Notes under the pieces: model-generated
The model's input: only the letters and a program-made list of their open reading frames with translations
What the model was told of the DNA's origin: nothing
Database searches by the model: none
Program-made: the position numbers and the translations under genes
Assembly: GCA_032249095.1 (NCBI GenBank)
Contig: JAVVGN010000014.1
Location: forward strand, 1-32,000
Reading direction: 5' to 3'
DNA from: Candidatus Caldarchaeales archaeon
GTDB lineage: Archaea; Thermoproteota; Nitrososphaeria_A; Caldarchaeales; Calditenuaceae
DNA length: 32,000 nt
Shown: piece after piece, positions 1,397 through 25,220 of the stretch
Numbering within the stretch: position 1 is the stretch's first letter
Layout: each line of letters begins with the position of its first letter

Positions 1397-3985
1397 GTGT
1401 TAACCCTAGACCCACAATTTATTGAGGAGCAGGTAGCAAAAATTCGGGAGAAGGCAATCGCTAATAACGATACCCTCTGCCTGAAAATCCTCGACTGCAT
1501 CATCGAAGCAAAAGCCTTCGACTCCAAACACCGCCTCTCCCTCTCCGAACTCTCCAAGCGAACAGGCATAAACCCAGGAACCATCTACCGACTCCTGTTC
1601 GGCACCAAAAAGCACAAGGCACGGCTGCTAAAATACGGCGTCGTCACCTGGGAACGGAAAAACCGCAAAGGCAAAAGGCACGGCCTTTACCTCAAATTAA
1701 CCCCCAGCGAAAACAAAGACAAAACATTGCACTTCAAGCGGGAATTCGCCCTCCAACAACAAACATCACCCAACGAAGAAGTCCGCAGGGAAGTAAATAA
1801 GCGCCACTTCAACCCCGATATCGCCTACTTCCGACTGGAAAGAATCCTGCGCAACAAGGAGTGCATGAAAATCATCGACGCCGTCAAACGCTACGGCATC
1901 TTCCGCTGGAAATCCGCCGTCAACCTCAAAACCCTCTCTACCCTCGCCAACGTCCACCCAACTAACGCCTCCCGATATATCATCCCAAGAAAAGAAAAAT
2001 ACCCCTTCCCCCACCTGCGCGACTTCTTCAGCTGCTCCCGACGAGGAAGACAAGTCAAACTCTACGTCCTGCCCAGATGGAAACCCCTCTTCGACCTCTT
2101 CCCATCCCCCGACAACCCCAAAGTCTCCGACGAACACCTCACCCGCATGGCCCACCTCTACTTTTTTATCTTCGCAAATCATTACGGTCTTGCCACCAAA
2201 TGCGACGAATCCTGTAAATACTGTAACGAATTTGCTACAAATCTGTCTCTCTCTCCTCCCCAGCCTTTTTCCTCTACCTCCCTTAAAAATACTGAAGAAA
2301 ATCCGCAGGGGGGCAACGCGCCCTTGACCGAGTTAGATTCCAACACTGAAATCGAAATCAAAAACAACCTAAGAGAGCCCCTAGCCCTATCGGAAGAGCC
2401 GGTATTATCCCAGCCTAGCCTAGCCGAAAGCCCAACCCCGCCAGAGCCACCCCAGCCTTCGGGGGTCTGCCACCAGAGCCCAGAGCCCCCCCAGCCTCCG
2501 GCGGGCTGCCACCAAACCCCAGAACCACCCCAACCCCTGCCACCCGCCGAGCCCGCTGAGGGGGATGACCGGACCGCAACCTCCGGTTTTGAAGCGGTGG
2601 TAGCGGTTGGCCGGAAAGAAGATAACCAACAACTATCCTCTAACGACAAAAATGAAACAAAGTTAGAGGGGAAGGATTCCGTGCCTTCCAAGTCGGGCGG
2701 TGGTGCTGGAGGCGCTGGGGGTGTAAGCAGTGGCGTTGGGGGGGCAAGCGGTGACAGTGGGAGTGAGGGTAAGGGGGGTAGAGGTATGTCGGCTCTTCGC
2801 AAGGGCACCGACGGCGGTGGGGGGAGCGGAGGCTCTGGGAACGGTTCGGAGCTATCGGACTTAGACATGGCCGACCGCGAGATTTGGGAATTGGTGGGAC
2901 GGTTGACGGGGTGGAAGCAAACTGACGGCGGGGTAATTGCGAATGGTTGCCCGCTAACTTATCAGGAAGCTGTTCGGCTCCTTTGCTCCGCCCTTTGGTC
3001 TGGTGAGGAGGAATGCCTGCTGCCCTTTGGCAGCCAGGTAGCTGACCCATCGAAGTTGGGGAGGGCAGAGGATGAGGAAATCCTTGAGGGGAAAATCGAC
3101 GAGTATGAGTATGAGTATTACTGCTTAGATTCAATAGATTTTCTCCCGCCCATTCAGAAGGTTCTCGCCAGTCGGCCGAGGCGGGAGGTGGTTGTGTGGG
3201 CGCGCAACGGCTATAAGGCGCAGAAGTGGTGGTGGGATGGAAGGCACTGGTGGAAATTAGGCGAGCATGACTTCCGCGATGAGGATGGTTTAGGAGAGCG
3301 AGCCTTCTGGCACGACCCGGATCTGCCGAGTGGTAGTGGCGCTTTTGGGCTGACGAAGCGAGGTCATCGGCTCCAGCTGTGGTATAGTCTGAGAAGATAC
3401 TGCTGGGTTCTTATCGGGTCGGCGCGTTATGATAAGAAGGCGATGGAGAAGTTCCTTGCTAAGATGCTCCGTCATCGGCGGCGAGAGTATCTCCGAAAGC
3501 GAACGGAGCCGAGAATCTGCACGAAGATTCATCCGCTGCGGAAGGGCATCTTTCATCCAGCAGAGTTAAATGAGAAGGGGTGTTGTGCCAAGTGTGGGCG
3601 CAAAGTGGCGCCTTCGCAGCTTCGCCTCTTTGACCTTCCTAAGGACTTTGAGCGGGATGTGCGGGAAATTCAGCGCAAGCAGAGAACCTCTGAAGGCACC
3701 CTCGTGTTGATGTATAACGGCTACTATCTTTGCGATACCTGCACAAAGGAGGTCCACGTGGACATGTACCGCATCGGTCGGCGGTTTGAGCACCGTTTGT
3801 TCAAGAAATACTTTAAGGGTCGGGATTTATTTACCGAGTTAGGAATTGTGCTGGGGGTGCGGGAGCTCTCGGAAGATGAGTGGAAGAACCCCCGCTATGC
3901 GTTCCTCTATCGTCTGCGCTTCTGGCCGCAACTTTGTATCTGGCACTTGGAAAAGGTAGGAGGTTGGGGTCTCTTTGCGGGCTGA
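1397..3985 (+). CDS. large multidomain protein (862 aa): N-terminal HTH-like modules, Pro-rich and Gly-rich low-complexity linker, Trp-rich C-terminal domain with CxxC...CxxC zinc ribbon; function unknown
   Basis: GTG 1397 with GGAGG 9 nt upstream (1383-1387). HTH-like segments LSELSKRTGINPGTIYRLL and LKTLSTLANVHPTNASRYI. PEPPQP repeats and a GGAGGAGG tract. CCAKCGRK...CDTC near the C-terminus. Confidence 0.8.
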   Translation: MLTLDPQFIEEQVAKIREKAIANNDTLCLKILDCIIEAKAFDSKHRLSLSELSKRTGINPGTIYRLLFGTKKHKARLLKYGVVTWERKNRKGKRHGLYLKLTPSENKDKTLHFKREFALQQQTSPNEEVRREVNKRHFNPDIAYFRLERILRNKECMKIIDAVKRYGIFRWKSAVNLKTLSTLANVHPTNASRYIIPRKEKYPFPHLRDFFSCSRRGRQVKLYVLPRWKPLFDLFPSPDNPKVSDEHLTRMAHLYFFIFANHYGLATKCDESCKYCNEFATNLSLSPPQPFSSTSLKNTEENPQGGNAPLTELDSNTEIEIKNNLREPLALSEEPVLSQPSLAESPTPPEPPQPSGVCHQSPEPPQPPAGCHQTPEPPQPLPPAEPAEGDDRTATSGFEAVVAVGRKEDNQQLSSNDKNETKLEGKDSVPSKSGGGAGGAGGVSSGVGGASGDSGSEGKGGRGMSALRKGTDGGGGSGGSGNGSELSDLDMADREIWELVGRLTGWKQTDGGVIANGCPLTYQEAVRLLCSALWSGEEECLLPFGSQVADPSKLGRAEDEEILEGKIDEYEYEYYCLDSIDFLPPIQKVLASRPRREVVVWARNGYKAQKWWWDGRHWWKLGEHDFRDEDGLGERAFWHDPDLPSGSGAFGLTKRGHRLQLWYSLRRYCWVLIGSARYDKKAMEKFLAKMLRHRRREYLRKRTEPRICTKIHPLRKGIFHPAELNEKGCCAKCGRKVAPSQLRLFDLPKDFERDVREIQRKQRTSEGTLVLMYNGYYLCDTCTKEVHVDMYRIGRRFEHRLFKKYFKGRDLFTELGIVLGVRELSEDEWKNPRYAFLYRLRFWPQLCIWHLEKVGGWGLFAG
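2441..2545 (+). repeat. imperfect 39-nt in-frame tandem repeat (about 2.5 copies) encoding PEPPQPxxxCHQx
   Basis: Unit 1 at 2441-2479 (ccagagccaccccagccttcgggggtctgccaccagagc). Unit 2 at 2480-2518 (ccagagcccccccagcctccggcgggctgccaccaaacc). A degenerate, internally deleted third unit starts at 2519. Confidence 0.8.
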
Positions 3986-4017
3986 CAGAGTTAATTTCGG
4001 CGCCGAAATTAACTCTG
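3986..4017. repeat. 32-bp perfect palindrome CAGAGTTAATTTCGGCGCCGAAATTAACTCTG, copy 1 of 2
   Basis: Exact reverse-complement symmetry. It starts 1 nt after the TGA of the 862-aa gene. An identical copy lies at 16291-16322. No flanking T-tract. Confidence 0.9.
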
Positions 4018-4081
4018 CGGGGGGCTATCGGACTTTCTCGACCGTGTCATTGAAGGAGATTGTCTGGCTGTTCTGCGCCAA

Positions 4082-5521: not shown

Positions 5522-8401
5522 ATGCCTATTGAGCTCCTTTTGAAGGCACGGATTTATCCAATATCGCTGGTAGGGATTGCGAATAGATACAAACCGCGCC
5601 TCGAATTCTCGAGGGAAAACTACAATATTTGGAAAGTAGAGATTGCGGTGGGGGCTCTATCTTCTCTTTTGGAAGAGCTTTGGAAAACGCAAAAGGAGCT
5701 TTTGAGGTATGCTCAGAATCTTCCTCAATTGTTCGAGGCGACGGGGTATGATCCTTATTTTATTCAAACCGACTGGCCAGCCTTAGTACCTCTTGCTTTA
5801 GCCGTTCACTTACACGGGAATTTCTCTTCCCCAACAGAGAAAGTAGAAGGCGGTTTGGTTGAGTTGTTCAAGGAAAAGTTAAAGAATGCAATAGAGGCGG
5901 TAAAATCATTAAAAGTAAGTAATGCCGATGCATCTAAGGCAATAAACGAATTTCTCTCACTATTTCGTGAATGGGCGAAGAATATTGCTCAGGATCCAAA
6001 TCAAAGACTGGATTACAATGACATTCTTAACGAGGTTAATAGTAAGCTGGGGAATGTTTTTCCTGTTGAGGAGGTTCGTAGGCATATTGCTGCCTTCGCT
6101 TCGGACCTTCTGCGATTGGTTTCTGTAACTGAGGAGGAGTTAGGAACCAGTTTTCAAGAACCCATCAATGAATTTTTTAGCCAAGTGAGAGGGACTTATG
6201 TTAGCTATCTACAGAGCAATGTATGGTTCAATATGGCCCCCTTTAATTCCATTGAAAATCAGGACTTGAATCAGTTTTCATTTGAGTTTTTCCCGTGGAT
6301 ATTGATTGTCCGTTATTATCTTAACAAGATGACGGGGAATGTTCAGGGGAGCCTTTGGAGACAATTGATGGAAGACCCTAATAAAACTTTGGGGGCTGGT
6401 GCGACTTGGGGATCCAACCTCCCTGCTCTGTTGTGGGGTAGCCTTTATCCCTCGCAGCGGGAAGACACATCACCGACCGATGAGAGGATTGCTGAAAAAG
6501 CAATTTCCTCCCCGTCAGTAATTGCTCCGCTTGTTTCTGGAGCAACCTCAGTGGGCAAGTCTAAATTGACTAATTTGTCTTTAGCGACCACGGTGGCAAA
6601 TGACATTGCTGTTCTGACAACAGGAGTACCGCTTGGTCTTGAAACTGCAGAAGTTCATCGCCGCAACTATCCGGGCCAATTGAGTGGGATCGTGGATTGT
6701 TTGAAGGACGTCTTGGTTTTTGTTTTGAGTTCTCTTGAAAGTTCGAAAGATCCAGCAGTTACTTTAGCTACTTTAAAAGAAATTTTAGAGAATCCAAAAA
6801 CTCCCACGCTATCATCTTTTCTAAAGAGTCTGTTAAATATTACATCTATAGATAGTATTAAGGAAGAGCAAATTAACGAGTTTAAGCAAGTTTTGCGAGA
6901 GAAAGTCAATAGATTAGAGGACTTAGAGAGGCGTTATTCTCAGCAACAAGATCGTTTGCGTAGAGCTTGGGAGTTTGTCAGCGAATTTGGTGAAATAATT
7001 GGGTGGAAAGTGGGATTTCACGAAGACGTGGACAGAATGATAGAGAATATTTTCCGGATGTTAGTAGAAGTGTCAGCAAATTATCGTAGTTCTGGATGGA
7101 GAAAATCTCTTTGGCCCCTTGCCTCTAGAGCTTATAGGTTTTTCGGCAGCCACATAGCAGTGTCATACGGTGCTCCTACTAATGAGTCTGAGGCGACTGG
7201 TTCCTTAGAGGGCGTGAAAGGTCCTCGTGCAGCTATGCTTCGGTTTGTAGACACTGTGCTGGGCACTACCGCGTCGCCTCCGCAGGAAGATGAAGATCTT
7301 TTTAGGCGGTTCGTTAACGCTATTAGGGAACTTCATAAGGTTTTAACTATGATAGCAGCTGCAAGGGATAAAAGAGCTGTTTTAGGTATTTCTTCCGCCG
7401 GGTGGAAGAGTGAACTCGATAGTCGATTGAAGGAAATTGGGTTAAGTGTGGAGGAAATTGTCAAAAGTGATAATGTCGAGGATCTTTATGAGCAAGCGAA
7501 GGCGAAAGGGGTCCTTACTCGAGAGAAACTGGAGGAAATTTTCTCATGGTTTAGGGGAATTGTGGAAAAAGCTTGGGAAAATCTTGCCGACAAAGCCGCG
7601 AAGCGAGTATCGCGGGTGGTCAAGGGACTAAGCTTGACGACGATGCCTCCTGGGGAGTTGTCGGAGTGGTTGGCAACGTTGTTTAGGGCTGCGCGTGTGG
7701 AGCAGTATGGGACGGTTTCCATTGCAGAAGAGGTTCGCCGTGAGGGATCTGAAGAAGGTGGTGAGAAGTCCGTTATTTTGGAGGCACAGACAATTGCAAC
7801 TACAGAAGAAATAGAGGACTCTCTTCGTAAGATATTGGAGGCGTTCGCATCGGCGCATAAGGATGTAGGGAATATCTCTTCTCTTTTAGGAAATTTTGCG
7901 GAGGCTTGGGATAAGTATGTCGCTGAAATCGGAAGGAGCGAGATAACGATTGATTCGGTAGAGTTCGGTGAAATAGTTGGTAGGGTGCTTGAGGAGCTAC
8001 TGAGACAAGGCAAGGTACATAAAGACTTCGTTAAGGATTTTGTAATATGGTTGTATAAAGTTAAAGGAGGTTCTATAGCGGGACTGGAAAGGTTACCTAA
8101 CTTACAAGGCATAGTTGGTGAAGCTTTGGAGGGACAGGGTGAAGAAAAGGGAGGGGTTGAAGAGCCTTCAGAGTCAGAGGAGGTGGAGGAAGGGCCGGCA
8201 CCACCATTTGGGCCTGAAGAAAGCACGTCAGCTCCCTCCGGTTTGGAGCAGGAGAGTAGTTCAGTTTCTCCTTATGGTTCAAGCGAACCTTCTGAATTCA
8301 AAACAGAGAGAAGAGAAGAGGAAGAGAAAAAAGAAGAAGGGGGAAGGCGCCTCCTACTTAAGTTTGTCTTTTTAGCGAAAGCGCTGCGAGTCTTTCCTTA
8401 A
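5522..8401 (+). CDS. large, mostly helical hypothetical protein (959 aa) with acidic/Lys-rich C-terminal tail
   Basis: Uninterrupted 2.9-kb ORF. ATG 5522 has GGGTGA 8 nt upstream. The E/K/L-rich composition suggests helical repeats or coiled coil. The tail is EEVEEG...EEEEKKEEGG. Confidence 0.75.
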   Translation: MPIELLLKARIYPISLVGIANRYKPRLEFSRENYNIWKVEIAVGALSSLLEELWKTQKELLRYAQNLPQLFEATGYDPYFIQTDWPALVPLALAVHLHGNFSSPTEKVEGGLVELFKEKLKNAIEAVKSLKVSNADASKAINEFLSLFREWAKNIAQDPNQRLDYNDILNEVNSKLGNVFPVEEVRRHIAAFASDLLRLVSVTEEELGTSFQEPINEFFSQVRGTYVSYLQSNVWFNMAPFNSIENQDLNQFSFEFFPWILIVRYYLNKMTGNVQGSLWRQLMEDPNKTLGAGATWGSNLPALLWGSLYPSQREDTSPTDERIAEKAISSPSVIAPLVSGATSVGKSKLTNLSLATTVANDIAVLTTGVPLGLETAEVHRRNYPGQLSGIVDCLKDVLVFVLSSLESSKDPAVTLATLKEILENPKTPTLSSFLKSLLNITSIDSIKEEQINEFKQVLREKVNRLEDLERRYSQQQDRLRRAWEFVSEFGEIIGWKVGFHEDVDRMIENIFRMLVEVSANYRSSGWRKSLWPLASRAYRFFGSHIAVSYGAPTNESEATGSLEGVKGPRAAMLRFVDTVLGTTASPPQEDEDLFRRFVNAIRELHKVLTMIAAARDKRAVLGISSAGWKSELDSRLKEIGLSVEEIVKSDNVEDLYEQAKAKGVLTREKLEEIFSWFRGIVEKAWENLADKAAKRVSRVVKGLSLTTMPPGELSEWLATLFRAARVEQYGTVSIAEEVRREGSEEGGEKSVILEAQTIATTEEIEDSLRKILEAFASAHKDVGNISSLLGNFAEAWDKYVAEIGRSEITIDSVEFGEIVGRVLEELLRQGKVHKDFVKDFVIWLYKVKGGSIAGLERLPNLQGIVGEALEGQGEEKGGVEEPSESEEVEEGPAPPFGPEESTSAPSGLEQESSSVSPYGSSEPSEFKTERREEEEKKEEGGRRLLLKFVFLAKALRVFP

Positions 8402-8579
8402 CAAACTCTATTCCACCCTTGCCAACTCTTAGGAAGAAGTGAGCAAGCGACGGTGACAAAGCGGCGATAAGAACGATGCAGACTATCTCCGCTACTGGGT
8501 TTTTAGTTGTTACTGCTTTGTAAAAAAGCATTGCTTGCGTCAGGATAGTCATGAAAAGCCATTGCCATTCCTTCTTCAT
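8358..8579 (-). CDS. small membrane protein (73 aa, two hydrophobic segments)
   Basis: Hydrophobic stretches WLFMTILTQAMLFY and AEIVCIVLIAALSPSLAHFFL. It is the last gene of the minus-strand cassette. The Shine-Dalgarno (SD) AAAGGAGG is 18 nt from the ATG, which is long. The 3' end overlaps the convergent 959-aa gene by 44 nt. Confidence 0.4.
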   Translation of the reverse strand: MKKEWQWLFMTILTQAMLFYKAVTTKNPVAEIVCIVLIAALSPSLAHFFLRVGKGGIEFVKERLAALSLKRQT

Positions 8580-8606
8580 GTTCTCTTTTTCTTTTCGCCT
8601 CCTTTC

Positions 8607-9233
8607 TTAATTAAAGACTGTTTCTTCCTCCTGTTGGTCACCCAACGCTTTTTGTACCTTTGTGTTCATTTGAGCCATGGTTTTGTCAAACTCTAGGGCG
8701 GCGGAGATGTAGGTCAGCAGGGCGGCGATGAACAGGTCGACAAGTGGCTCAAGTTCTGCATCCTTCGTCTTGAGGTAGGACAGGACGGCAGGAAAGTAGA
8801 CGAGGATCCCCCACATCGCGTTGATCAGCACGGCCATTATATTTGCTAATGTAAGAGCATGCGGGTCCATTTCCACTATCGGTTGTAGGTGTAAGATAAG
8901 GGCTGCATCGGCGTAAAAGGCTTGTGCTGTGACGATGAGGTTCTCCGTTTGACTTAGTATTTTTATGTATCTCATGTTTATTTCATCTATTTGCGTATTC
9001 TCTATGGTTGCTGTGCTCATGTGCTTAAATATTTGTTCTTTGATGTTGCCTTCTTCTGGTTTCAGTTCTTTTGGAAGGAGTCCGCCCTCGCTCATTAGGT
9101 CGATAATTTGAGCGATGGAACGGTGTATCCTTACCAGTTTATTGAAATGGATTAACGGCAGTCTTTCCGAGTTAGCCATGTTGGGTGGTGGGGTGGACAC
9201 CCCCCACTTGCGCACCTCCTTATCTCGCATCAT
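8607..9233 (-). CDS. membrane protein (208 aa), function unknown
   Basis: Two C-terminal hydrophobic helices (IMAVLINAMWGILVYFPAVLSYL and LVDLFIAALLTYISAAL). TAAGGAGG directly follows the upstream protease stop. The start is uncertain: ATG 9233, or in-frame GTG 9200. Confidence 0.6.
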   Translation of the reverse strand: MMRDKEVRKWGVSTPPPNMANSERLPLIHFNKLVRIHRSIAQIIDLMSEGGLLPKELKPEEGNIKEQIFKHMSTATIENTQIDEINMRYIKILSQTENLIVTAQAFYADAALILHLQPIVEMDPHALTLANIMAVLINAMWGILVYFPAVLSYLKTKDAELEPLVDLFIAALLTYISAALEFDKTMAQMNTKVQKALGDQQEEETVFN

Positions 9234-10023
9234 CTAAGATGAATTCTAGATTCCATTGTGCCAAGGTGTCTCGGATTCTCTTTATGGGGACGGCAAGGTT
9301 AATAGTTTCCCCAGCGCCCCGAGTTAGCATTCCGGCGTAATAGCACCGCTCATTGTCTACGACAAAGATGCCGCCGCCCGACGAGCCAGGTTGGGCTGTC
9401 GAAGAAAGCTGGATGAACGGTTTATTGTTGAGCATGCGGCTTGTTGCCGAGATGACACCGAAGGTAACGGAGTTAACGAGTTCGCCTAACATTGAGCCGC
9501 AGTGGTAGACTGGTTGTCCAGCGTAGACCGATTTATCTTTTGGTAGGGGTCGTGCCCCGAAGGGCAGTAGGTCTTCCTCGTAGGGTTGGAGCACTGCGAG
9601 ATCGTTACCACCTCGTTCTTCAATGGGCGAATATTTGAGGATTTTACAGCGTAGGCGCAACTCGCCGGTTACAACTCCGTCTTTCACTCGTTCAATGACT
9701 ACGGTGACGTCGTCAAATACAGCAATTTTTACGTCTTTTTGTTCTTCGCCTGGCTGGGGAGGTTTGGTAATGTACCTGATGGCTCGGGAAACGACATGCC
9801 CTGCTGTGAGGACAAACGTCCCTTTAGATGTTTTGAAGACAGTGCCCGACCCAGCGACTATCCATTGGCTGGTTGCTCCGCCGATCCCTTCAAAGACGGC
9901 TACTTGGACGGAAGGAGCGAGCACTCTTTCACGGATTTCTTGTTCATTAGGAAGTTGGGTTGCGATGGCAATAGCGATTGCCATCCCCAGTGCTGCGGTG
10001 GCTAAGGCTCCTACTCGTTTCAT
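9220..10023 (-). CDS. trypsin-like (S1/DegP-like, no PDZ) serine protease with N-terminal signal/anchor
   Basis: Catalytic triad contexts LTAGHVV (His), GNDLAVL (Asp) and QPGSSGGGIF (Ser). Hydrophobic N-terminus MKRVGALATAALGMAIAIAIA. GGAGG lies 9 nt upstream of ATG 10023. Confidence 0.85.
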   Translation of the reverse strand: MKRVGALATAALGMAIAIAIATQLPNEQEIRERVLAPSVQVAVFEGIGGATSQWIVAGSGTVFKTSKGTFVLTAGHVVSRAIRYITKPPQPGEEQKDVKIAVFDDVTVVIERVKDGVVTGELRLRCKILKYSPIEERGGNDLAVLQPYEEDLLPFGARPLPKDKSVYAGQPVYHCGSMLGELVNSVTFGVISATSRMLNNKPFIQLSSTAQPGSSGGGIFVVDNERCYYAGMLTRGAGETINLAVPIKRIRDTLAQWNLEFILDDAR

Positions 10024-10077
10024 TAACCTTTGCCTCCTGTTCTGGGGTACCTTTTGTTGTGCCGTTAATATTATAGC

Positions 10078-10329
10078 CTACGGCTGGTGTAGGATAGCAT
10101 TTATCCAGAGCAAGTAGGCGGCAAGGTCGTGGAGGGCTGCTGGTGAGTATTCTGACGGGTTGATGCGGCTCGCTATCCACGTGATAAGGGGTTCTCTGGC
10201 TTTGGCGGGGGCGGCTCGCCCTCGTCCCTTCAATTGCGTTTTTGATAGGGCAGCTTCTCGTCTGGAGATGATTTCCATGATGTGGAGCATTTCTTCCCAC
10301 AATCTTGTCTTCTTGCCAGGCTTTTTCAT
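10078..10329 (-). CDS. hypothetical small protein (83 aa)
   Basis: ATG 10329 with GGAGGG 8 nt upstream. It fills the gap between lon and the trypsin-like protease on the same strand. Confidence 0.45.
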   Translation of the reverse strand: MKKPGKKTRLWEEMLHIMEIISRREAALSKTQLKGRGRAAPAKAREPLITWIASRINPSEYSPAALHDLAAYLLWINAILHQP

Positions 10330-10351
10330 AGCAGCGCCCTCCGATAGGATT

Positions 10352-12757
10352 TTAGGAAGCGTGTTTTTCCAGTTTAATATCCAGACGGGCTAATACCTCT
10401 TCTATTGTTTCTACGGGCGTTATCCTGATTCTATGTGATAGTTTGCTTTTCTTAAGCCAGTAGTCTACTTCGTCTTTATTGGCAGCAGGGATAAGGATTT
10501 CTTCTAGCCCGGCGTTTTCTGCTGCGACAATTTTGGCGGGCAGACCGCCGACGGGGAGAATTTCGCCGCTGGCACTAATCTCTCCTGTCATTACCACGAG
10601 TCTTCCAATCGGTCTGTTGAGGTGGGTGCAGATAAGTCCGATGGTGATGGCAAGGCTGGCAGACGGCCCTCCCCGTGGCAGGGAAACAGATGGAAGATAA
10701 ACGATCCATTTGGTATTAGCGCTGTCGAATGTAGGAATGTGATGTCGGCACCATAGGAAGGATGATTTGATACTTTCCTTCATGCTATCATCAGCATTTC
10801 CAATGATTTCGATGTTCCAGGGGGAGTTATTATTTGCAGCTTGGTCAATCTTATGAATTTCCACCCAGAAGACGACCCCCTCGCCACTTCTATTGACCCC
10901 GACGACGGGGATATAGCCGACACGCTGGGCATACTCATTCTTCCACTCCACGAGGGGAACGGGTGGGGGGAAGTGGCGTTGTATGAATTTCGCCGTAACC
11001 CTTTTTTCTTGAAGGCACAGGGCTTTTCTTAAGGCACTTTCTACCTGACGTTTGACCTCTCGGACGCCCGCTTCCCATCTTCCCCAAGTTTTGACGATGT
11101 AGGAGATAGCGTCGTCCGTAATAGCCACATGTTCTTCTGTTATTTGCCAGTTCTTTCGTATGGTTGGTATAAGGTAATGCTTTACGATTTGGAATTTTTC
11201 GGGAAGAAGGTAGCCGTTAAACTGGATGAATTCCATGCGGTCGGCGAGGATCGGGTCTATATTCTCTTGAACATTGGCGCCACAGATGAAAAGAATATTG
11301 GAAAGGTCAATGGGGTAGTCTACATAGTGATCGAAGAAATCGTGATTTCTATCAGGGTCTAGTGCGTCCAGCAGGGCGGCGTCAGGTCTACCTTTGTAGC
11401 TTAGCCCAAGCTTATCGATTTCATCAAGGAAGATAATTCCGTTTAGTGCTTTCAATTGGGCGAGGGCAGAGGCGATACGACCTGGCATAGCGCCGATGTA
11501 GGTTCGGCGGTGTCCCTTAATTTCTGATTCATCTGAGACGCCGCCGAGGCTAACCCTGTAGAAGGGCAATTTAAGCGCTTCTGCGACCGCTGCTGCCATT
11601 GATGTTTTTCCTGTTCCCGGTGGACCAATAAAGCAAAGGATATTGCCTTTTGGTGGTCTCTTGAGATGAGTGTAGAGGGCTAAATATTCCGATATTCGTT
11701 CCTTTGCGTCAAAGAGTCCGTAGTGGCTGTTTTCTAAGGTAGTTATGACCTCGCTGAGATTTGTGTTGGGTTCAACATACTTCCCCCACGGTAATGAGAG
11801 GACGAATCGCACGTGGCGTAGGGTAATTGGTCTTTCTGGGTTAGTGATGTACCCTGCTACCGATTCTACTTCTTCTCGGAGTTTTGCTTTTAGCTGTTCT
11901 GGTAGGTTGGGATTGGTTTGTATTTCTTTTAGGAGTTCGTCAGCTTCGCTATCACCTGTTGTATATGAGATTTCTTTTATTTCGGTGTTAATGGCGTCAC
12001 GGAGGTGTGATAGGAATGCCAGTCTTTGCTGTTTTGCGGCGGATTCGTCAGCTTCTTCCCTTACTTTTTTCACCTCTTCCATCCGTATCTTTAGAGCTTT
12101 GACAAAATTTAGGACTTCCATAGCGAAGTCTCTAAAGTTCGTGGTGCTGACAATTGATTCGTAGTCGCTTGGCAGCATAAAGTAGGCGACATTATCGGAT
12201 TGAAGGATTTCTATTATGATGTGGTAGAGAGATTGTTGTAGCCCTTCGCTGGATGAGATTATTAGCGGGTCTTTGTTTCTCACTTGGTTGTAGGTCTTTT
12301 GAACGATTGCTTTGAGGGTAGGGACTAATTCAAAGAAGTCGCTCATGTTGAAGAACTGGAATATTTGGATACAGGCATCAGCAAGGGCGAAGTCGGGTTT
12401 ATCCGACAGGTATGGACTAAATGGGATGGTATTTCCTTTGCCTACGAAGCATTGCGCCTCGTTGTCGAACCAGATTTCGTTTATCTGGATTGCGTTGCCG
12501 AGGCTGGTTTTCACCCACCAAATATTTTTCTCTTCTTTTACCTTTTCCCACTTTGTTACAATTACCCCTCGTCTTAACAGGTCAGTTCCGTCTTTAACTT
12601 CTTGGGCGCTGAAGAAGCGTTGTGGGACGAGGGCAACGCCGAGGGGATGTTGAAGGGCGTTAAGTGAAATCGTTCGCCCTACCGCTATTCCGTCCCGTTC
12701 TGTCCTTGGGTACGGATAAAATCGAATCGGAAGTATGGCGAAAGTGATTTCACTCAC
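10352..12757 (-). CDS. lon: LonA-type ATP-dependent protease (801 aa)
   Basis: Walker A GPPGTGKTS and Walker B IIFLDEIDK. The Lon signature SDESEIKGHRRTYIGAMPGRI is colinear with E. coli Lon. Protease domain has RGGPSASLAI (catalytic Ser) and VGGLPAKIVAA (Lys aligned to Lon K722). GTG start at 12757 overlaps the vWA stop (GTGAGTGA). Confidence 0.9.
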   Translation of the reverse strand: MSEITFAILPIRFYPYPRTERDGIAVGRTISLNALQHPLGVALVPQRFFSAQEVKDGTDLLRRGVIVTKWEKVKEEKNIWWVKTSLGNAIQINEIWFDNEAQCFVGKGNTIPFSPYLSDKPDFALADACIQIFQFFNMSDFFELVPTLKAIVQKTYNQVRNKDPLIISSSEGLQQSLYHIIIEILQSDNVAYFMLPSDYESIVSTTNFRDFAMEVLNFVKALKIRMEEVKKVREEADESAAKQQRLAFLSHLRDAINTEIKEISYTTGDSEADELLKEIQTNPNLPEQLKAKLREEVESVAGYITNPERPITLRHVRFVLSLPWGKYVEPNTNLSEVITTLENSHYGLFDAKERISEYLALYTHLKRPPKGNILCFIGPPGTGKTSMAAAVAEALKLPFYRVSLGGVSDESEIKGHRRTYIGAMPGRIASALAQLKALNGIIFLDEIDKLGLSYKGRPDAALLDALDPDRNHDFFDHYVDYPIDLSNILFICGANVQENIDPILADRMEFIQFNGYLLPEKFQIVKHYLIPTIRKNWQITEEHVAITDDAISYIVKTWGRWEAGVREVKRQVESALRKALCLQEKRVTAKFIQRHFPPPVPLVEWKNEYAQRVGYIPVVGVNRSGEGVVFWVEIHKIDQAANNNSPWNIEIIGNADDSMKESIKSSFLWCRHHIPTFDSANTKWIVYLPSVSLPRGGPSASLAITIGLICTHLNRPIGRLVVMTGEISASGEILPVGGLPAKIVAAENAGLEEILIPAANKDEVDYWLKKSKLSHRIRITPVETIEEVLARLDIKLEKHAS

Positions 12758-13910
12758 GACAGTCTTCTACCTCCTTTGTCTCTGCTATAGGTATGGATGC
12801 GATGAATTTCACACTTCTAAATTTATTCTTTTTCTCTTCAAGAGTTTTCTGGCAATCGCGTCGCTCGTTTATTATTATACCGAGTATTGTAGAATCCGTC
12901 ACCAAGTCTCTGTCGGTATCGGTCGTGTCAAAATCGCTGATGAGGATAATGGCTTCAGGCTTTAATTGCTCTTTGTCTATAAGCTTTTGGATAGACCTGA
13001 AGATTTCTGTTCCGCCTCGTCCTTTCATTGTCGTTAGGAATTCTGGGAGTTGTTCGCTGGCGTAGGTGGATACCCAGCGACTTTGGAAGTCGGCGTCAAC
13101 CTGTGCGACATGTATTTCTGTGGTCGGATAAATGGATTGGAGCATCTTCACTATGGTTATTACTAAGGATGCGCAGGTTTGTAATCCTGCCTTAGACATA
13201 GACCCCGATGTATCTATTCCTATGACGATTTGTCTTGGGTACAGGGGGAGAACGATTTCCGCATACTTTTGCTGCCAGAGGAGTAGGATATCGTATTCTG
13301 GTCGGCTGAAGCCTCGGCGCTTTGTCACCGTTGCCTCTATGATATTTTGGAGTCGAAATGTGAGGTTCCCGCCGATGGCGGGGGGTATGTATTCCACGGC
13401 ACCACCAGTTGATTTTCCAGCCGTTAGGGGTAGTGTCATCCAAGTTAGCTTGGTCTCGTCTGGGATGTTGGGGTTGTTTGAAATTTGCTGGTGAAACTGT
13501 TCAAAGGCGGTATTTAGTTGTTCGGGGCTTAGGATGCGGCTGGCGAAGGACTGTTTAATAATGCTTTGGCTGTCCATCTCGCGGATACTGCGCCAGCCCT
13601 GATGGTCATCACCGAAGCCCATTTGTCTCGTGATGTTATTTGAGTGTCGTAACTTTAAGAAGATTTCCTCGGCGCTTAGCCCGAGCCATTTTCTCTTTAC
13701 TGGTTTAATTTGTTTGAAGGTAGAGGAGCTGATAGTGATGAGTAGGTGGTTGACCTCCAAGTCACAGGAGTAATCCCAGCGGGGGTCGTTATGGAGGACT
13801 GTACCTCTGCGGAAGTGAAGGAGGAGAATGTGGGCGGCGATGTGGCACAAGTAAATCCTTAGGTGGGCAGGGGTAATTTCTTCCAACCACTCTTCACCGA
13901 CTTCGCCCAC
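12750..13910 (-). CDS. DUF2201-type protein: degenerate metallopeptidase-like N-domain plus vWA domain (main ORF; true N-terminus lies upstream across a frameshift)
   Basis: MIDAS motif VIGIDTSGSMS, then GRGGTEIF and ILISDFD. The N-domain LCHIAAHILLLHFRRG matches the position of the HExxH...H..RRG motif of DUF2201_N, with Glu replaced by Ile. There is no SD before GTG 13910. Confidence 0.8.
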   Translation of the reverse strand: MGEVGEEWLEEITPAHLRIYLCHIAAHILLLHFRRGTVLHNDPRWDYSCDLEVNHLLITISSSTFKQIKPVKRKWLGLSAEEIFLKLRHSNNITRQMGFGDDHQGWRSIREMDSQSIIKQSFASRILSPEQLNTAFEQFHQQISNNPNIPDETKLTWMTLPLTAGKSTGGAVEYIPPAIGGNLTFRLQNIIEATVTKRRGFSRPEYDILLLWQQKYAEIVLPLYPRQIVIGIDTSGSMSKAGLQTCASLVITIVKMLQSIYPTTEIHVAQVDADFQSRWVSTYASEQLPEFLTTMKGRGGTEIFRSIQKLIDKEQLKPEAIILISDFDTTDTDRDLVTDSTILGIIINERRDCQKTLEEKKNKFRSVKFIASIPIAETKEVEDCRE

Positions 13911-14049
13911 AAAAAAAGTTGTGGCTCACGACTTGTAGCGTAGGGGGTGTGGAAGGTTTATCGGCGAGGACCCAGACGGCGGGCAGGAAGGCTGCCAGCA
14001 CGGGAAAATCTTCTACTACCGATAATAAGACGCTATAGAGTTTGTGCAC
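13894..14049 (-). CDS. N-terminal fragment of the same DUF2201/vWA gene (46 aa before the frameshift)
   Basis: GTG 14049 with AAGGAGG 8 nt upstream. It encodes VHKLYSVLLSVVEDFPVLAAFLPAVWVLADKPSTPPTLQVVSHNFF, then meets the A7 run (13911-13917). Removing one base fuses it to VGEVGEEWLEE... of the 12750..13910 ORF. It is too short for the 60-aa ORF track. Confidence 0.7.
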   Translation of the reverse strand: MHKLYSVLLSVVEDFPVLAAFLPAVWVLADKPSTPPTLQVVSHNFFCGRSR

Positions 14050-14144
14050 GTTCCATGCCTCCTTCTTTCAGGCGCCGTATGTATTCTCGGACTAACCGAC
14101 GGAGACGGTGCGGGTGACGGGCAACCCGCTGTCTATATTTTACT

Positions 14145-14852
14145 TCACGATGCGGCCTTTCTGCTTTTTTTGTAGACATCTGCCTTCAATAGGTAGTCTT
14201 CCAGCTTTTCCTTCCATTCAAGGGCGCGCCGCCAGAGGGAGGGCCGGATATCCCGCAGGTTCTTGTTGAAGATGATGGTTTCTAAGCCTTCAATCGTCTT
14301 GTGGAGGACGGTAGCGGCCTCTTCAGAGATAGTGACTGGGAGAGGTTCGCCGCACCGATCGCACCAAAGCGGTGCGGGGACGATGTCTTCGTCTTCCAAC
14401 GAGGCGACCATTACAGCTTTTTGCAGGAGGACGCTTTCTTGCTCCTTTGCGCAGGTGGGGCAGTAAACCTTTTCGCCCGCCTCTAGCAGGACGACGGCGC
14501 CCTTCCGCACGGAAAGCGGAGCCGCCCCGCACTTGGCACAAACAATGCCGTCGTGGACTTTCTCCAACCTGAAGGCCCTAGATCTTACTTTGTCTGGCAA
14601 TCCTTGACGGCACTTAGAACAGATGACGTTTTTGCCTAGCGCATACCACTCCATTTTTGCTTTTTGCCACCTGCTCTTTTCCAGGCTACCTTCGTCTACC
14701 TCATATGCCTTTTCTTCGTCCCACCAATAGAAGCACTCACCGCAAAAGCATGGGTGAGATTCGTCCTTTTCCCAATTTCTCACCTTCTCGTCGTTTTCAT
14801 CTATCGTGTCTGGGCAAGGGCAGCTGCATCCCTCTTCTTTTCGCCAAGGCAT
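14145..14852 (-). CDS. multi-zinc-ribbon protein (235 aa)
   Basis: At least five CxxC-type pairs (CSCPC, CFCGEC, CSKC, CAKC, CPTC, CDRC). First gene of the vWA-Lon cassette, on the same strand. Confidence 0.65.
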   Translation of the reverse strand: MPWRKEEGCSCPCPDTIDENDEKVRNWEKDESHPCFCGECFYWWDEEKAYEVDEGSLEKSRWQKAKMEWYALGKNVICSKCRQGLPDKVRSRAFRLEKVHDGIVCAKCGAAPLSVRKGAVVLLEAGEKVYCPTCAKEQESVLLQKAVMVASLEDEDIVPAPLWCDRCGEPLPVTISEEAATVLHKTIEGLETIIFNKNLRDIRPSLWRRALEWKEKLEDYLLKADVYKKSRKAAS

Positions 14853-15636: not shown

Positions 15637-16200
15637 GTGGAGGTGATAAAGGTGACCGATTTATTCCTGCGTTGCTTAAGGTTTGTTCTAAAGTGGGAAG
15701 GCGGTCTTAGTAATGACCCAGACGATCCAGGCGGTCTGACGAATCGGGGCGTTACGCAGGCTCGTTATGACCAGTATCGTAAAGAAAAGGGGCTCCCGAA
15801 AAGGAGCGTTGCCCAAATGACCGAGCAAGAGATGCGGGAGATTTACTGGAAGTATTATTGGGTTCCAGTGAGGGGGGACGAGTTTCCTTATCCTCTTGCT
15901 CTTGCTGTTTTTGATACGGGTGTCAATATGGGGACGGTGACGGCGGTTAGGCTTTTGCAGCGAGCTATCAATGACTTGTTACCGTCTGCAAAGTGGATAG
16001 ATGTAGATGGCAAAGTGGGGCAGCAAACCTTATCTGCTGCTAAGTCTTTGCCGGATAGGACCCTTGCGTTGAAGTTGTGCGACCGTCGGGAGGAGCGCTA
16101 CCGAGCGATCGTTCGTGCTAATCCGAAGTTGGGGAAATTCCTGCGGGGTTGGCTTAACAGATTAAATGACCTACGCAAGGAAATTCAGAAGGGCGCGTAG
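15637..16200 (+). CDS. GH108-type lysozyme with PG_binding_3 domain (endolysin-like)
   Basis: LKWEGGLSNDPDDPGGLTNRGVTQ is the GH108 signature. The C-terminal VDGKVGQQTLSAAKSL is peptidoglycan-binding-like. The more likely start is GTG 15652, with GGAGG (15639-15643) 8 nt upstream. Confidence 0.85.
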   Translation: MEVIKVTDLFLRCLRFVLKWEGGLSNDPDDPGGLTNRGVTQARYDQYRKEKGLPKRSVAQMTEQEMREIYWKYYWVPVRGDEFPYPLALAVFDTGVNMGTVTAVRLLQRAINDLLPSAKWIDVDGKVGQQTLSAAKSLPDRTLALKLCDRREERYRAIVRANPKLGKFLRGWLNRLNDLRKEIQKGA

Positions 16201-16263
16201 CTCAATGGCAGAGCAGCCGGCTCATAACCGGTAGGGTGGGGGTTCGAGTCCCTCCGCGCCCAC
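16192..16263 (+). tRNA. tRNA, anticodon CAT (elongator Met type, or Ile2 if lysidine-modified); no encoded CCA
   Basis: Full 72-nt cloverleaf by hand. Acceptor GGGCGCG/CGCGCCC, D arm GCTC-AATGGCA-GAGC, anticodon arm GCCGG-CTCATAA-CCGGT (CAT at 16224-16226), variable loop AGGGT, T arm GGGGG-TTCGAGT-CCCTC, discriminator A. The G1-C72 pair argues against a bacterial initiator. Confidence 0.85.
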
Positions 16264-16398: not shown

Positions 16399-19300
16399 TC
16401 AGTCGCATCTCGTGTAGGAGCACGAGACGCAAGCTGAGCAACCGCCAAGCCTAATCATGATCCCTCCGCACTCTGGGCAGGTCATGCCGTCAATTTGTAT
16501 GGTCTCATCTGATTTTCCTTTTTGTGCGGTTTCAGCGATTAGGTGATTACCGTTTTCTGGTTCACCGCACGCTTTGGCGAGTGCCCTGCCGACGGCATCG
16601 GGGACAGAAAAAACAACAGTCCCGTCGGGCTGACGCTGCCAACTCCCGCTTCGGATAAGTCTCAGTTGTTGGATGAGTTCTTGTGGCGGAACATCATATT
16701 GGAGACCAATACTTAAGGCCCTACCGAGGGCCTCGCCGAGTGCTGCCGTCGTTGACCCGCTTTTTCCGATGTTGATGAAGACCTCACGGACTTTTCCTTC
16801 CGCATCTTTAGAAACAGTGATGTAGACGTTGCCTGCCTCTGTTCGGTATTTGAAGACCTCGGCGTTGAGGGACGCAGGGCGGACGAACCGAACTCGTTTG
16901 GGCTCGGACTTTTCTTTTTCTGTTCTCAGGATATCTTCTCGGCTACCTTCTCGGTAGACGGTGATGCCTTTGCATCCCCGCTTCCACGCCTCAAAGTAAA
17001 TATCCTCTACGGCTTTAGGTGGTATGTCGCGAGGTAGGTTGACGGTGCTGCTAATTGCGTTATCAATCCCTGCGGTTTGGATAGTTGCTTGCATTTCTAC
17101 TCTCATGATTGGGTCGATTTCGTGTGCTGTGACCAGGTGTGGAGGCAATTCTTTCTTTCCTGTAACTTTGAAGTAGTCGTTCACTGTCGGGTGGAAGACC
17201 TCGAATTCCTTCTGGCTGAGGCTTTCGGAGCGCCTGTAGTATTTGACTTGGAAGATGGGTTCGATGCCCGTAGAGACTCCTGCCATCGTGCCGATGGAGC
17301 CTGTTGGGGCGATCGTTAGCAAGGTGACGTTGCGGATGCCGTGCTTTTTGATTCGTTCCCTCAGTTGTTTGGGCAGGCGTTTGACGAATTCTGACTGGCT
17401 GTATCCCTCCCAGTCAAAGGCAGGGAAGGGGCCCTTTTCTATGGCTAAGTTAATGCTCTCGTCGTAGGCGGTATCTCGCATGACGGTGAAGACTTTTTCG
17501 GCGAATTCTACTGCCTCTTCGCTGTCATACTTGATCCCCAAAGCAAAGAACATATCCGCTAATCCCATGATGCCTAATCCCAGCCGCCGCTCTCGGTTTT
17601 GAACCTCCCGCTGGGCTGGCAGCGGATATTTGTTCTTGGCGTCGGCATAGTCTATGACGGCATCAAGGAATCGGACGCCAAGCCTAACTGCCTTTTTGAA
17701 TTCCTCAAAGTCAAAGTGGGCATGTTCTGTGAATGGGTCTTTGACGAACTTGTAGAGGTTGATCGCTGCAAGGTTGCAGGCGCCGTATGCGGGCAGCCCG
17801 ATTTCGGAGCAGGGGTTAGTTCCAAGCAGCGGGTGGAAGTATTCGCTGTTACTGTTTCTTTTCATGGTGGACCAATATATTAGGCCTGGCTCGGCGCTGT
17901 TTGAGATTACCCACCCATTAGCGAGGACAAAGGTATGATTATCGGCGACAGTGATATCATAGACCTTTTCTTCTTGTCTTCCAGCCAAACGGACGTTCAC
18001 GATTTTCTCGTAATGAATATCTGCTGCTAGGTGGCGGCGAATGTGTGGGTCTAACGATAATATAGGGTAGCGAAGAATGGTTGCAGGAGCGACCCGTTCG
18101 CGGATACAGCCCCTCCAAATTCGATAGAAGAGGACGAAATTTGCGATCATGGGAATGCCGACCAGCTTAGATGTGGTTGTTAAGGCATGCTGTTCTAGTC
18201 GTTCTTGCTTGCGTCGGATAAGGAAGCCAACGCGTTGGGCGAAGAGGTTATTGTAGCCCTGATAAATCTTCAACCGATAAGTGTCACGGGTTCGGCAAAC
18301 CTTTCCGTTGATAACCTTCTCTTTGCCTCTTTGAGCCAAGCTGAGACGGCTGTGGATGCCCAACAGCAAAAGCAACCGCTGGACGGATTCCAAAATGGAG
18401 CGAGAAACGGACGAGACAGAAATCGTTCCGCCCTCCTCCACACAGCCGTCGCCGCTAAAGTAACCACGCAAGAAAGCAGCAATAATGGGAATGGGGGCTT
18501 CTGCGAGGAAGGAGGGGACTACTTTTTGCCCATTTTGGTAAATGCCGAGTGCTTGGAGGGTTAGGCGGAGTGTAGTGCAGTCTATGCGCAAACTGACCCA
18601 ATTACCTGCTTGGCGTTCCCATACCCACTTCGCGTTGAACCTGCGAGCAATTTCTTCCAACAGAGGCTGCAATTCTTTTGCTTCTTCTACGTGCAAGGCA
18701 AGTCGCAAGCCGCTTTTCCTAACAGAACCCTCTGCTAACCACAGCCCCAGAAACTCTGCGAAAGTCTCGTCTACAGGGAAACGTAAAGGTAATTGTAAGT
18801 CGTGGTGGTGACTTGGCTTCCAGAAGACGCCATCGGCAGGGATTTCCACGCCTTGGGCTCTCAACCGCACGGCTTCTTTGATAGGTAGATGACCTACCCG
18901 CAGATATTCATCAGCTCGCCACGCCTTTCCGCTGGGGAACTTGCCCAGCAAGTGACGGACGCGCGGCGTTTGAAGTAACTGGATAATTGGCTCACCTGTC
19001 AACCCATGACCGAAAGCAGCCAGAGTCTGCCATTGGTCCCGTAAATCCACCCAGGCGACCTGTTCGTCCTTAGCCTCATCTTTCTCGGTGGTTTTAGCAA
19101 TAGCAACGAAATCGCCTGGACGAAGGGCAGAGACGGGAACACTTTCTATGCTCCCTTCAGGCGTAAGGCGATAAACGATATGGTCTTCGGTGGCGACGAA
19201 AACTTTCCCGCTTTCCGTCTCCGCCTCATAAAGCCTTTTGTCGTTTGCAAACTCGTAAACCTTCGTGATTGGCTTCCGCTCCAGTTGCAGCGTTTCCAAG

Positions 19301-25213: not shown

Positions 25214-25220
25214 GTTTGGC

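Follow-up and report, generated by a model that had tools for sequence, protein, structure and literature searches.

Adaptors and inhibitors are known for proteases of the LonA type, e.g., SmiA of B. subtilis and PinA of phage T4, and to our knowledge no cellular Lon has a dedicated partner with a von Willebrand factor A (vWA) domain. The vWA proteins that are paired with AAA+ ATPases work through the MIDAS, an adhesion site that depends on a metal ion and binds an acidic residue of the target, with the vWA domain docked on the AAA+ ring (PMC9976466, PMC7159879), and models of the NorQ-NorD pair place a finger of the vWA protein in the AAA+ pore (PMC9976466). Related components make up the ternary conflict systems described by Kaur et al. 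(2020), of the VMAP, iSTAND, FtsH and beta-propeller types, which have a MoxR core and effectors fused to the vWA C-terminus; Lon is never mentioned in that paper (PMC7159879). Here we describe a block of co-oriented genes in a stretch of 32,000 nucleotides (contig JAVVGN010000014.1, positions 1 to 32,000; hereafter the window) from an uncultivated jumbo phage lineage, in which a vWA protein of the DUF2201 type is encoded next to a complete LonA protease.

The cellular relatives of this vWA protein have a different partner. In all five of the cellular DUF2201 loci that we sampled, a P-loop ATPase of 325-364 aa is encoded beside the vWA gene (three of the five reach the Pfam families AAA or AAA_5), which agrees with the statement in a preliminary description of this DNA that ATPases of the MoxR class are the usual partners of DUF2201 proteins. 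The phage vWA gene has LonA as its neighbor and no MoxR-type (AAA_5) ATPase next to it. The central idea of the preliminary description, that a DUF2201-type vWA protein is paired here with LonA in place of MoxR, has held up in comparison with about 18 loci (L001-L018) fetched from independent metagenomes, including JGI and ENA samples, for which synteny was established from gene calls and from tblastn of every protein of the window against all fetched loci. Twelve of these loci, with 48-97% protein identity, constitute a main clade, and L007 and L018 form a deep clade at 33-35% identity, with which L008 groups as well. That the genes should co-occur beyond a single contig, a point on which the proposal had been made to depend, is borne out by the recurrence of the arrangement in this set of loci, and such recurrence argues that the arrangement is not a product of chance.

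In every related locus with enough sequence, a multi-CxxC zinc-ribbon gene, the vWA gene and the Lon gene follow one another in this order, and the vWA and Lon genes remain adjacent and overlapping (not in L012) down to about 33% (vWA) and 43% (Lon) identity. The three genes are obligately linked and have diverged in parallel: identities of the zinc-ribbon, vWA and Lon proteins to those of the window are 84/91/95% in the nearest clade, 48/54/68% in the next and 33/32/43% in the deepest. The zinc-ribbon orthologue lies directly upstream of the vWA gene wherever there is enough flank, and in L007 and L018 its product is 33-34% identical to that of the window. The overlap between the vWA stop and the Lon start, which the preliminary description had pointed out in the window (sequence GTGAGTGA), is 4-14 nt long across the loci, L012 being the exception. 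In L007, L008 and L018 this core has been kept though the genes that flank the module differ; an N6_N4 methyltransferase is encoded upstream of the module in L007, and in all three loci the last 23-44 nt of the Lon gene are shared with the gene of a Cas4-like PD-(D/E)XK nuclease (L007 12471-13652, L008 3308-4453, L018 7769-8914). With the addition of a short Arg-rich peptide gene, treated below, the conserved core is zinc-ribbon, peptide, vWA and Lon, in that order.

What surrounds this core is less constant. The run of co-oriented open reading frames (ORFs), separated by short gaps or overlaps, occupies positions 15536-8358 of the minus strand (Table 1), and the preliminary description had presented seven genes of it as a cassette. 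The zinc-ribbon, Lon, 83-aa, trypsin-like, 208-aa and 73-aa ORFs were found where that description had placed them, whereas its vWA gene, given as 14049-12750, is not a single ORF. The starting point of the block also has to be moved, since a co-oriented gene for a protein with a NAGPA (phosphodiester glycosidase) domain, at 15536-14874, precedes the zinc-ribbon gene, and the 95-nt interval that the description had left as a gap between the zinc-ribbon and vWA genes is coding, being part of a conserved 48-aa ORF (14179-14033) that was overlooked. The trypsin-like protease does not belong to the cassette in any general sense: it is present in the clade of the window and in L013 (78% identity, same position) and is missing in L003, L010, L012, L015, L007 and L018. 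The two membrane proteins and the 83-aa protein, likewise counted in before, are limited to the closer or main clade; the 83-aa gene is missing from L007, L008 and L018, where the PD-(D/E)XK nuclease comes after Lon. The NAGPA gene upstream of the zinc-ribbon gene is kept in the main clade and not in L007 or L018. The seven-gene cassette thus resolves into a conserved cytosolic core and envelope-directed neighbors that come and go, the NAGPA protein, the trypsin-like protease and the small membrane proteins being envelope-acting neighbors rather than obligatory parts. Scans for promoters and terminators returned background levels only.

The Lon gene has its own AAGGAGG 12 nt upstream of the GTG start, and its product matches the Pfam families AAA (85 bits), Lon_lid (31.6 bits) and Lon_C (90 bits). 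Walker A is found at residues 378-385 (GPPGTGKT), the pore loop TYIGAMPG begins at residue 419 and Walker B occupies residues 441-449 (IIFLDEIDK). The earlier reading of the AAA+ partner as a full protease with an intact Ser-Lys dyad is upheld by the Lon_C match and by Ser699 (GGPSAS) and Lys742 (GGLPAKIVAA), both of which are invariant in an alignment of 33 sequences. The Walker A, Walker B and Ser motifs occur in all seven clusters of the clade; the pore-loop pattern was missed in two of them (P0023 and P0024) and the Lys pattern in one. Judged by these motifs, all of the catalytic ones being kept, the protein is predicted to be an enzymatically competent LonA.

Of the Pfam families that the preliminary description had led us to expect in the block, AAA, Lon_C and Trypsin_2 are matched and VWA is matched more weakly, whereas DUF2201_N stays below its cutoff and LON_substr_bdg (PF02190) is not detected in the N-domain of Lon, whose first ~140 residues Pfam misses. 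Profile comparison of the clade's N-termini with those of cellular LonA by hhalign nevertheless gives a probability of 90% (E 1.5e-6, 162 columns). The AlphaFold2 model of Lon (mean predicted local distance difference test score, pLDDT, of 84, and about 90 over residues 1-240) has strands from 4 to 111 that form a beta-rich subdomain, a bundle of helices from 123 to 203 and a long helix at 208-261, and Foldseek aligns about 800 columns of the model to the full-length LonA structures 7p6u, 7fd4 and 7ypk (E 1e-47 to 1e-42). LonA and LONP1 sequences from the PDB align from residue 143/185 of the phage protein to its end. On the strength of profile and model, the N-domain is a diverged LonA N-domain. 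The match to TIGR00763 amounts to 445 bits against a cutoff of 608 and covers residues 197-791 only, and since it falls below the equivalog cutoff the protein is to be regarded as a divergent LonA member and not as an orthologue of the housekeeping Lon. Cellular LonA proteins reach no more than 39% identity to it, in an alignment of some 70% of the length. When residues 1-280 were compared with 1.84 billion representative proteins, three real relatives were recovered, all from this lineage. In the clade at 55% identity the N-domain is 46-48% identical to that of the window, against 76% for the ATPase-protease part, so it diverges about as fast as the vWA and zinc-ribbon proteins. Matches of Lon to PADLOC families are partial only (DolB, 45 bits, in the AAA region; BrxL, 21 bits; CARF-Lon, 31 bits).

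The larger, 386-aa ORF of the vWA gene matches DUF2201 (PF09967) with 27.7 bits, just over the cutoff of 26.4, and more weakly VWA, VWA_2 and VWA_3; the match to DUF2201_N (PF13203), at 21.9 bits, lies under the cutoff of 23.2 and extends over profile positions 50-147 only. The MIDAS residues (D279-T-S281-G-S283, T347 and D372 in the numbering of the fused protein of 432 aa) are invariant, as are the DTSGS, GGT and SDF motifs. The HExxH motif of the N-terminal, metallopeptidase-like domain is replaced by HIAAH....H in nearly all members of the family (one has HVAAH and one HIAVH), i.e., the Glu is lost and three His are kept; a weakly related DUF2201-like ORF on another metagenome contig (L020) has HETLH. 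The peptidase-like domain is likely a binding module and not an enzyme. In the AlphaFold2 model of the fused protein the vWA half has block-mean pLDDT values of about 62-89, and Foldseek matches the C-terminal half to the integrin I-domain, Rpn10, the MIDAS domain of MDN1 and BatB. The protein ends about 30 residues past the vWA domain and no effector is fused to its C-terminus. It also matches phrog_1314 (E 5e-19), and the whole family comprises 17 clusters among 5.8 billion proteins.

The interval 14049-12750 is 1300 nt long, which is not a multiple of three, and for this reason it cannot be one ORF. It consists of a 51-aa ORF (14049-13894) and the 386-aa ORF (13910-12750), in different frames. 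The first 46 codons of the former encode the first helices of the DUF2201_N-like domain, MHKLYSVLLSVVEDFPVLAAFLPAVWV...SHNFF, and alignment to the 431-aa homologue of L007, which is uninterrupted (..GRNFYLGKVGAEWLKK..), leaves no gap between these 46 residues and VGEVGEEWLEE..., with the joined product collinear with the unshifted proteins of L007 and L018. At the junction, TTT TTT Y GTN is present at the same codon, with exactly one extra nucleotide, in 12 of 12 main-clade loci (e.g., at 9994-10000 in L001 and 10096-10102 in L003, with equivalents in L009-L017), i.e., over a range of 48-97% identity, and the break is missing in the L007/L018 clade at 33-35% identity. Elsewhere in the same genes Phe is encoded by 72 TTT and 135 TTC codons (35% TTT). 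The site is followed in the zero frame by TGT or CGT, and in the genes of the window either codon is used less than any of its synonyms. Nei-Gojobori counts for the N-terminal piece are 10 synonymous and no non-synonymous differences between the window and L014 and 19 and 3 between L003 and L010, with a dN/dS of 0-0.15 within clades.

A fixed pseudogene had been named in advance as an outcome that would tell against the proposal; the break is indeed fixed, yet a pseudogene can be rejected, since both pieces of the gene are under purifying selection. A sequencing artefact was rejected as well, because the break recurs in JGI and ENA assemblies of different samples and takes the form T6C in several clades, and so was a general tendency of this genome to frame breaks at homopolymers, there being one other candidate only (a T7 run at 22375), probably on the non-coding strand. 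The two features by which recoding sites are recognized, a conserved slippery sequence and purifying selection on both frames, are found together here. We favor recoding by +1 slippage, which these features make reasonably probable, over a split gene with coupled re-initiation, which we regard as the less probable of the two while still giving it appreciable weight, because a split gene would not require the invariant TTT TTT in the lineages of the window, L010 and L013. The internal GTG of the main piece has no Shine-Dalgarno sequence and the upstream GTG has a strong AAGGAGG; every locus nevertheless has a GTG, ATG or TTG in the +1 frame, at -7 to 0 codons from the site, and for this reason the split-gene alternative stays. 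RNAalifold around the site gave a covariation term of -0.03 and no convincing structure, and no Shine-Dalgarno-like stimulator was found upstream of it. If recoding occurs on the ribosome, tRNA-Phe would re-pair from UUU to UUU or UUC; slippage could alternatively be transcriptional, on the run of U6-7. Recoding by +1 would be expected to yield the junction peptide ...QVVSHNFFVGEVGEEWLEEITPAHLR. The +1 site of PA-X in influenza A is UCC UUU CGU (PMC8310308); the L003-type site, UUU UUU CGU, has the same UUU_CGU core, at which a P-site tRNA-Phe could re-pair from UUU to UUC. The candidate site described here differs from those of PA-X and the prfB type in that it belongs to a bacterial virus, is accompanied by neither a Shine-Dalgarno-like stimulator nor a convincing RNA structure, and would also allow transcriptional slippage or a split gene. 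Should the recoding be real, the conserved break at UUU UUU Y would be one of the rare cases of +1 recoding in a bacterial virus.

The Arg-rich ORF of 48 aa that lies between the zinc-ribbon and vWA genes overlaps the 3' end of the former by 35 nt and the start of the latter by 17 nt, and the codons for its KEGG residues serve at the same time as the vWA gene's Shine-Dalgarno sequence. All 12 main-clade loci share a core of KY.RRV.RHP[HN]RLR[RH]LV...I[RK]RL[KR]EGG, which is still recognizable in L007 and L018. Nei-Gojobori counts are 8 synonymous to 1 non-synonymous (window versus L009) and 8 to 0 (L010 versus L012), and between clades the proportion of synonymous differences is about 0.9 against about 0.2 for non-synonymous ones; the ORF is conserved and under purifying selection. 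In the L003 clade its ATG overlaps the zinc-ribbon stop (TTATGA) and its end, TAATG, falls on the vWA start, overlapping signals that link zinc-ribbon, peptide, vWA and Lon genes in one chain. In L001, where ACG stands in place of the ATG, no canonical start is present (L001 ~9730-9766). Near its end the zinc-ribbon gene has a run of A7 (TAC AAA AAA AGC; window ~14160-14185, minus strand), at which the frame of the small ORF opens; L001 has an A7 run at this spot too, and a second +1 shift may extend the zinc-ribbon protein. The zinc-ribbon protein itself has a conserved C-terminal portion of ~165 aa with four Cys pairs and a helical motif, RPxLW..A..WKEKLDDYL.

The viral setting that the preliminary description had assumed is confirmed by a large terminase subunit (25188-27191), a GH108 endolysin and an intein-bearing ribonucleotide reductase in the window, which also encodes a Holliday-junction resolvase, and by the occurrence of relatives on contigs of 131, 199 and 256 kb. 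The only match of the large terminase is to Microcystis phage Mvi-JY20, at 21% identity, and the majority of the ORFs in the window have no Pfam or PHROG match. Among GenBank phages, neither the block (by megablast) nor the vWA protein (by tblastn) had a match, and tblastn of Lon returned only cellular-type matches of 32-36% identity; pattern-based scans of IMG/VR with the vWA protein, Lon and the vWA alignment found no relatives; and in GTDB (185,579 species genomes) there were only generic DUF2201 proteins of 20-32% identity and no cellular or prophage copy. The lineage is a novel clade of uncultivated jumbo phages that is unsampled in reference phage collections, and the module marks it.

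We propose that the module is a lineage-specific, translationally coupled unit of four cistrons in which the vWA protein would act as a dedicated adaptor that delivers a target to Lon, a reading to which we give a probability of about 0.45 and which draws on the analogy with NorQ-NorD, CbbQ-CbbO, RavA-ViaA, BchI-BchD and Rpn10 of the proteasome. The vWA protein would dock on the Lon hexamer, probably by way of the diverged N-domain; its MIDAS, perhaps together with the dead peptidase cleft, would capture a specific target, which Lon would then unfold and degrade. The zinc-ribbon protein and the Arg-rich peptide would supply a third component with a role in target recognition or regulation, and the phage would in this way bring along its own machine for the targeted proteolysis of host or phage proteins. 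Host takeover, anti-defence and lysis timing, which the preliminary description had put forward, stay candidate roles. A +1 event of low efficiency would probably set a low ratio of vWA to Lon, leaving the adaptor sub-stoichiometric, and such a ratio would be consistent with one adaptor per hexamer. A fully specified version, in which a MIDAS-vWA pseudo-peptidase adaptor, throttled by a programmed +1 frameshift at UUU UUU Y and assisted by a zinc-ribbon sensor and the micropeptide, delivers host proteins to LonA, strikes us as rather doubtful. If this version is true, the module would amount to a viral counterpart of proteasomal degradation guided by receptors. The AAA+/vWA pairs known so far are remodelling chaperones or switches of conflict systems and not feeders of a processive protease, and a vWA protein that steers Lon would represent a new route to Lon substrate specificity and, for viruses, a new strategy of degrading proteins selectively in bacteria.

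Several observations weigh against the adaptor proposal. If a vWA finger entered the pore of Lon, the vWA protein would become a substrate or plug and not an adaptor, and the N-terminal half of the vWA protein, where the putative binding module lies, is modelled by AlphaFold2 with a pLDDT below 50. In L012 a TnpB gene (OrfB_IS605/Cas12f-like; 2853-4025, minus strand) lies between the vWA and Lon genes, and in L004 (11211-13669) Lon is spread over three frames, with two 1-nt insertions and 11 further mismatches relative to L005; in L004 either the gene copy is decaying or the assembly is in error. Together, the L012 insertion and the broken Lon of L004 suggest that tight coupling, or even Lon, may be dispensable in some variants. 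The whole region is moreover syntenic within the main clade, where the linkage could be partly a matter of inherited gene order.

The last of these points leads to the suggestion that Lon and the vWA protein are unrelated neighbors, Lon serving as a general protease for quality control or host shutoff and the DUF2201 protein working with some other ATPase, encoded elsewhere in the ~250-kb genome. The synteny of the main clade, which spans the region from the ribonucleotide reductase, GH108 and NAGPA genes through the 959-aa gene, would be expected on this account, as would the L012 insertion, and the inspection for MoxR covered 32 kb of the genome. Yet nothing of the block but the vWA-Lon pair, the zinc-ribbon gene and the micropeptide survives into the clade at 33-43% identity, with the start/stop overlap still there, and both families are confined to one lineage; we consider mere neighborhood improbable. 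About equally improbable, in our estimate, is a phage-borne conflict module for superinfection exclusion or anti-defence, in which the zinc-ribbon protein would be the sensor and the vWA protein the co-chaperone, Lon supplying both the motor and the peptidase effector. Such a module would resemble in its three-component logic the ternary systems of MoxR and vWA proteins, where effectors are often peptidases (PMC7159879, PMC12839542), and would fit with the Cas4-like nuclease that overlaps the Lon 3' end in L007, L008 and L018 and with the mobile TnpB elements nearby. It is harder to reconcile with the fixed syntenic position of the module in every relative, which resembles that of a core gene and not that of a variable island, with the lack of a MoxR, of a VMAP or iSTAND component and of effector diversity, and with the PADLOC results, in which neither the vWA nor the zinc-ribbon protein has a match and Lon has weak partial ones only.

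A role reversal within the pair is somewhat less improbable than either of these, though still unlikely: the vWA protein, and perhaps the zinc-ribbon protein, might be a regulated substrate, plug or inhibitor that gates Lon or acts as a timer, e.g., in a late switch or in lysis. The finger that occupies the AAA+ pore in models of NorQ-NorD (PMC9976466) would suit such a role, recoding would hold the vWA protein at low and tunable levels, and the module adjoins genes of the envelope and lysis type, namely the divergent GH108 endolysin, the exported NAGPA protein, the trypsin-like protease and the small hydrophobic proteins. On the other side, the strict conservation of the MIDAS suggests an external ligand, and the lysis-type neighbors are missing in L007 and L018, yet the pair persists there.

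Table 1 Features of the block and its surroundings (window positions; strand given as + or -)
Feature	Position	Strand	Basis or remark
959-aa protein	5522-8401	+	no family match; converges on the block, 44-nt overlap with the 73-aa gene
73-aa small hydrophobic protein	8358-8579	-	shares 44 nt at its 3' end with the convergent 959-aa gene
208-aa protein	8607-9233	-	probable start at Met19 (190 aa), following the gene call of L001
Trypsin-like serine protease, 267 aa	9220-10023	-	Pfam Trypsin_2 (PF13365), 57.8 bits, cutoff 27.6
83-aa protein	10078-10329	-	better conserved than any other gene of the block (98% and 76% identity in the two nearer clades)
LonA-type AAA+ protease, 801 aa, diverged N-domain (1-~260)	10352-12757	-	GTG start
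vWA gene, main piece, 386 aa from GTG	12750-13910	-	rest of metallopeptidase-like domain and DUF2201/vWA domain
T7 run (TTT TTT T), +1 shift point	13911-13917	-	candidate slippage site or split-gene junction
vWA gene, N-terminal piece, 46 codons	13912-14049	-	GTG start, AAGGAGG before start; zero-frame stop at 13894
Unannotated 48-aa Arg-rich ORF, MSTKKAERPHREVKYRQRVARHPHRLRRLVREYIRRLKEGGMERAQTL	14033-14179	-	translation, conservation
Multi-CxxC zinc-ribbon protein, 235 aa	14145-14852	-	ORF
NAGPA (phosphodiester glycosidase) domain protein, 220 aa	14874-15536	-	Pfam PF09992, 49.7 bits
GH108 endolysin	15637-16200	+	Pfam; divergent from the NAGPA gene
tRNA-Met (CAT)	16191-16263	+	begins within the final codons of the GH108 endolysin gene
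Ribonucleotide reductase with intein	16399-20145	-	near the block

Among the neighbors of the core (Table 1), the NAGPA protein has an N-terminal hydrophobic segment at residues 5-23 in a hydropathy scan and is probably exported. The trypsin-like protease has its triad in place (His76, Asp141 and Ser215), a partial match to DegP/HtrA in NCBIfam and an N-terminal hydrophobic segment at residues 4-22, which would make it membrane-anchored or exported; since there is no PDZ domain, it is to be called HtrA-like or trypsin-like and not a full HtrA. The 208-aa protein, with 30% identity to its counterpart in the L003 clade, has a soluble N-terminal half and at least two hydrophobic helices in the C-terminal half; its equation with the MgtE-like protein of L007 was considered and rejected (hhalign probability 0.2%). 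Neither the zinc-ribbon protein nor the 83-aa, 208-aa and 73-aa proteins have a match in Pfam, PHROGs, NCBIfam or PADLOC.

Further variation was seen among the fetched loci. The TnpB gene of L012 abolishes the vWA/Lon overlap and alters the C-terminus of the vWA protein, and in L006 another TnpB gene (18577-19860) lies a few kb away. One of the insertions in the L004 Lon gene falls in the Walker A codons, and the N-terminal fragment of this Lon forms a protein cluster of its own, P0138. The 959-aa gene diverges faster than its neighbors (70% identity in L001, where Lon has 95%, and 24% in L003), its product ends in a Ser/Glu-rich tail of low complexity, and a gene of comparable size and position (1086 aa) is present in L007. 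The ribonucleotide reductase is polymorphic for inteins, with no intein in L003 and L005 (738 aa), a single intein in L004 and the window (1201-1248 aa) and two inteins, with LAGLIDADG domains, in L006 and L001 (1593-1712 aa) (coordinates: L001 2349-7487, L003 5351-7567, L004 3973-7578, L006 2851-7632).

The likeness to vWA-MoxR-VMAP ternary systems that the preliminary description had suggested does not extend to any of their defining features: the block has no MoxR (the bpMoxR match on Lon reaches E 0.097 only), no VMAP, iSTAND, FtsH or beta-propeller component and no effector fused to the vWA protein. What is shared is the three-component logic of a third protein, a vWA protein and an AAA+ protein, and the presence of peptidases, one ternary type adding the AAA+ protease FtsH. 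Ternary systems are mobile and diversifying, whereas the phage module is viral, single-copy and syntenic, and its third gene encodes a zinc-ribbon protein with no family match. Consistent with the earlier statement that this combination is not a described system, it fits no ternary system and no PADLOC family (PADLOC-DB v2 has no match for the zinc-ribbon, vWA, 83-aa, 208-aa and 73-aa proteins), and we found no description of a Lon-vWA pairing in the literature searched, though it may be described elsewhere.

The two halves of the pair can each be placed beside known relatives. Phage Lon shares with the LonA proteins of E. coli, Thermus and Meiothermus and with human LONP1 the full architecture, all of the catalytic residues and an alignment of the model over its full length; it differs from them in its N-domain, which Pfam misses. 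With the MoxR/vWA pairs (NorQ-NorD, CbbQ-CbbO, RavA-ViaA and COG3864/DUF2201) the module has in common a vWA protein in which the MIDAS is intact and an accessory domain precedes it at the N-terminus, and an adjacent gene for a hexameric AAA+ protein that is probably co-translated. Cellular DUF2201 proteins contain the same two Pfam domains, which they match with 77-165 bits as against 28 and 22 bits for the phage protein, and the phage protein has lost the HExxH glutamate of the zinc-peptidase motif of DUF2201/COG3864. In the cellular loci the ATPase gene comes before the vWA gene, whereas the phage order is vWA and then ATPase, and the ATPase of the MoxR/vWA pairs is a MoxR protein of ~330 aa, in place of which the phage has a full LonA, a member of the HCLR clade with a fused S16 protease. 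The MoxR/vWA pairs bring about remodelling or metal insertion, whereas the outcome to be expected of the phage pair, if the analogy with them holds, would be degradation of the target.

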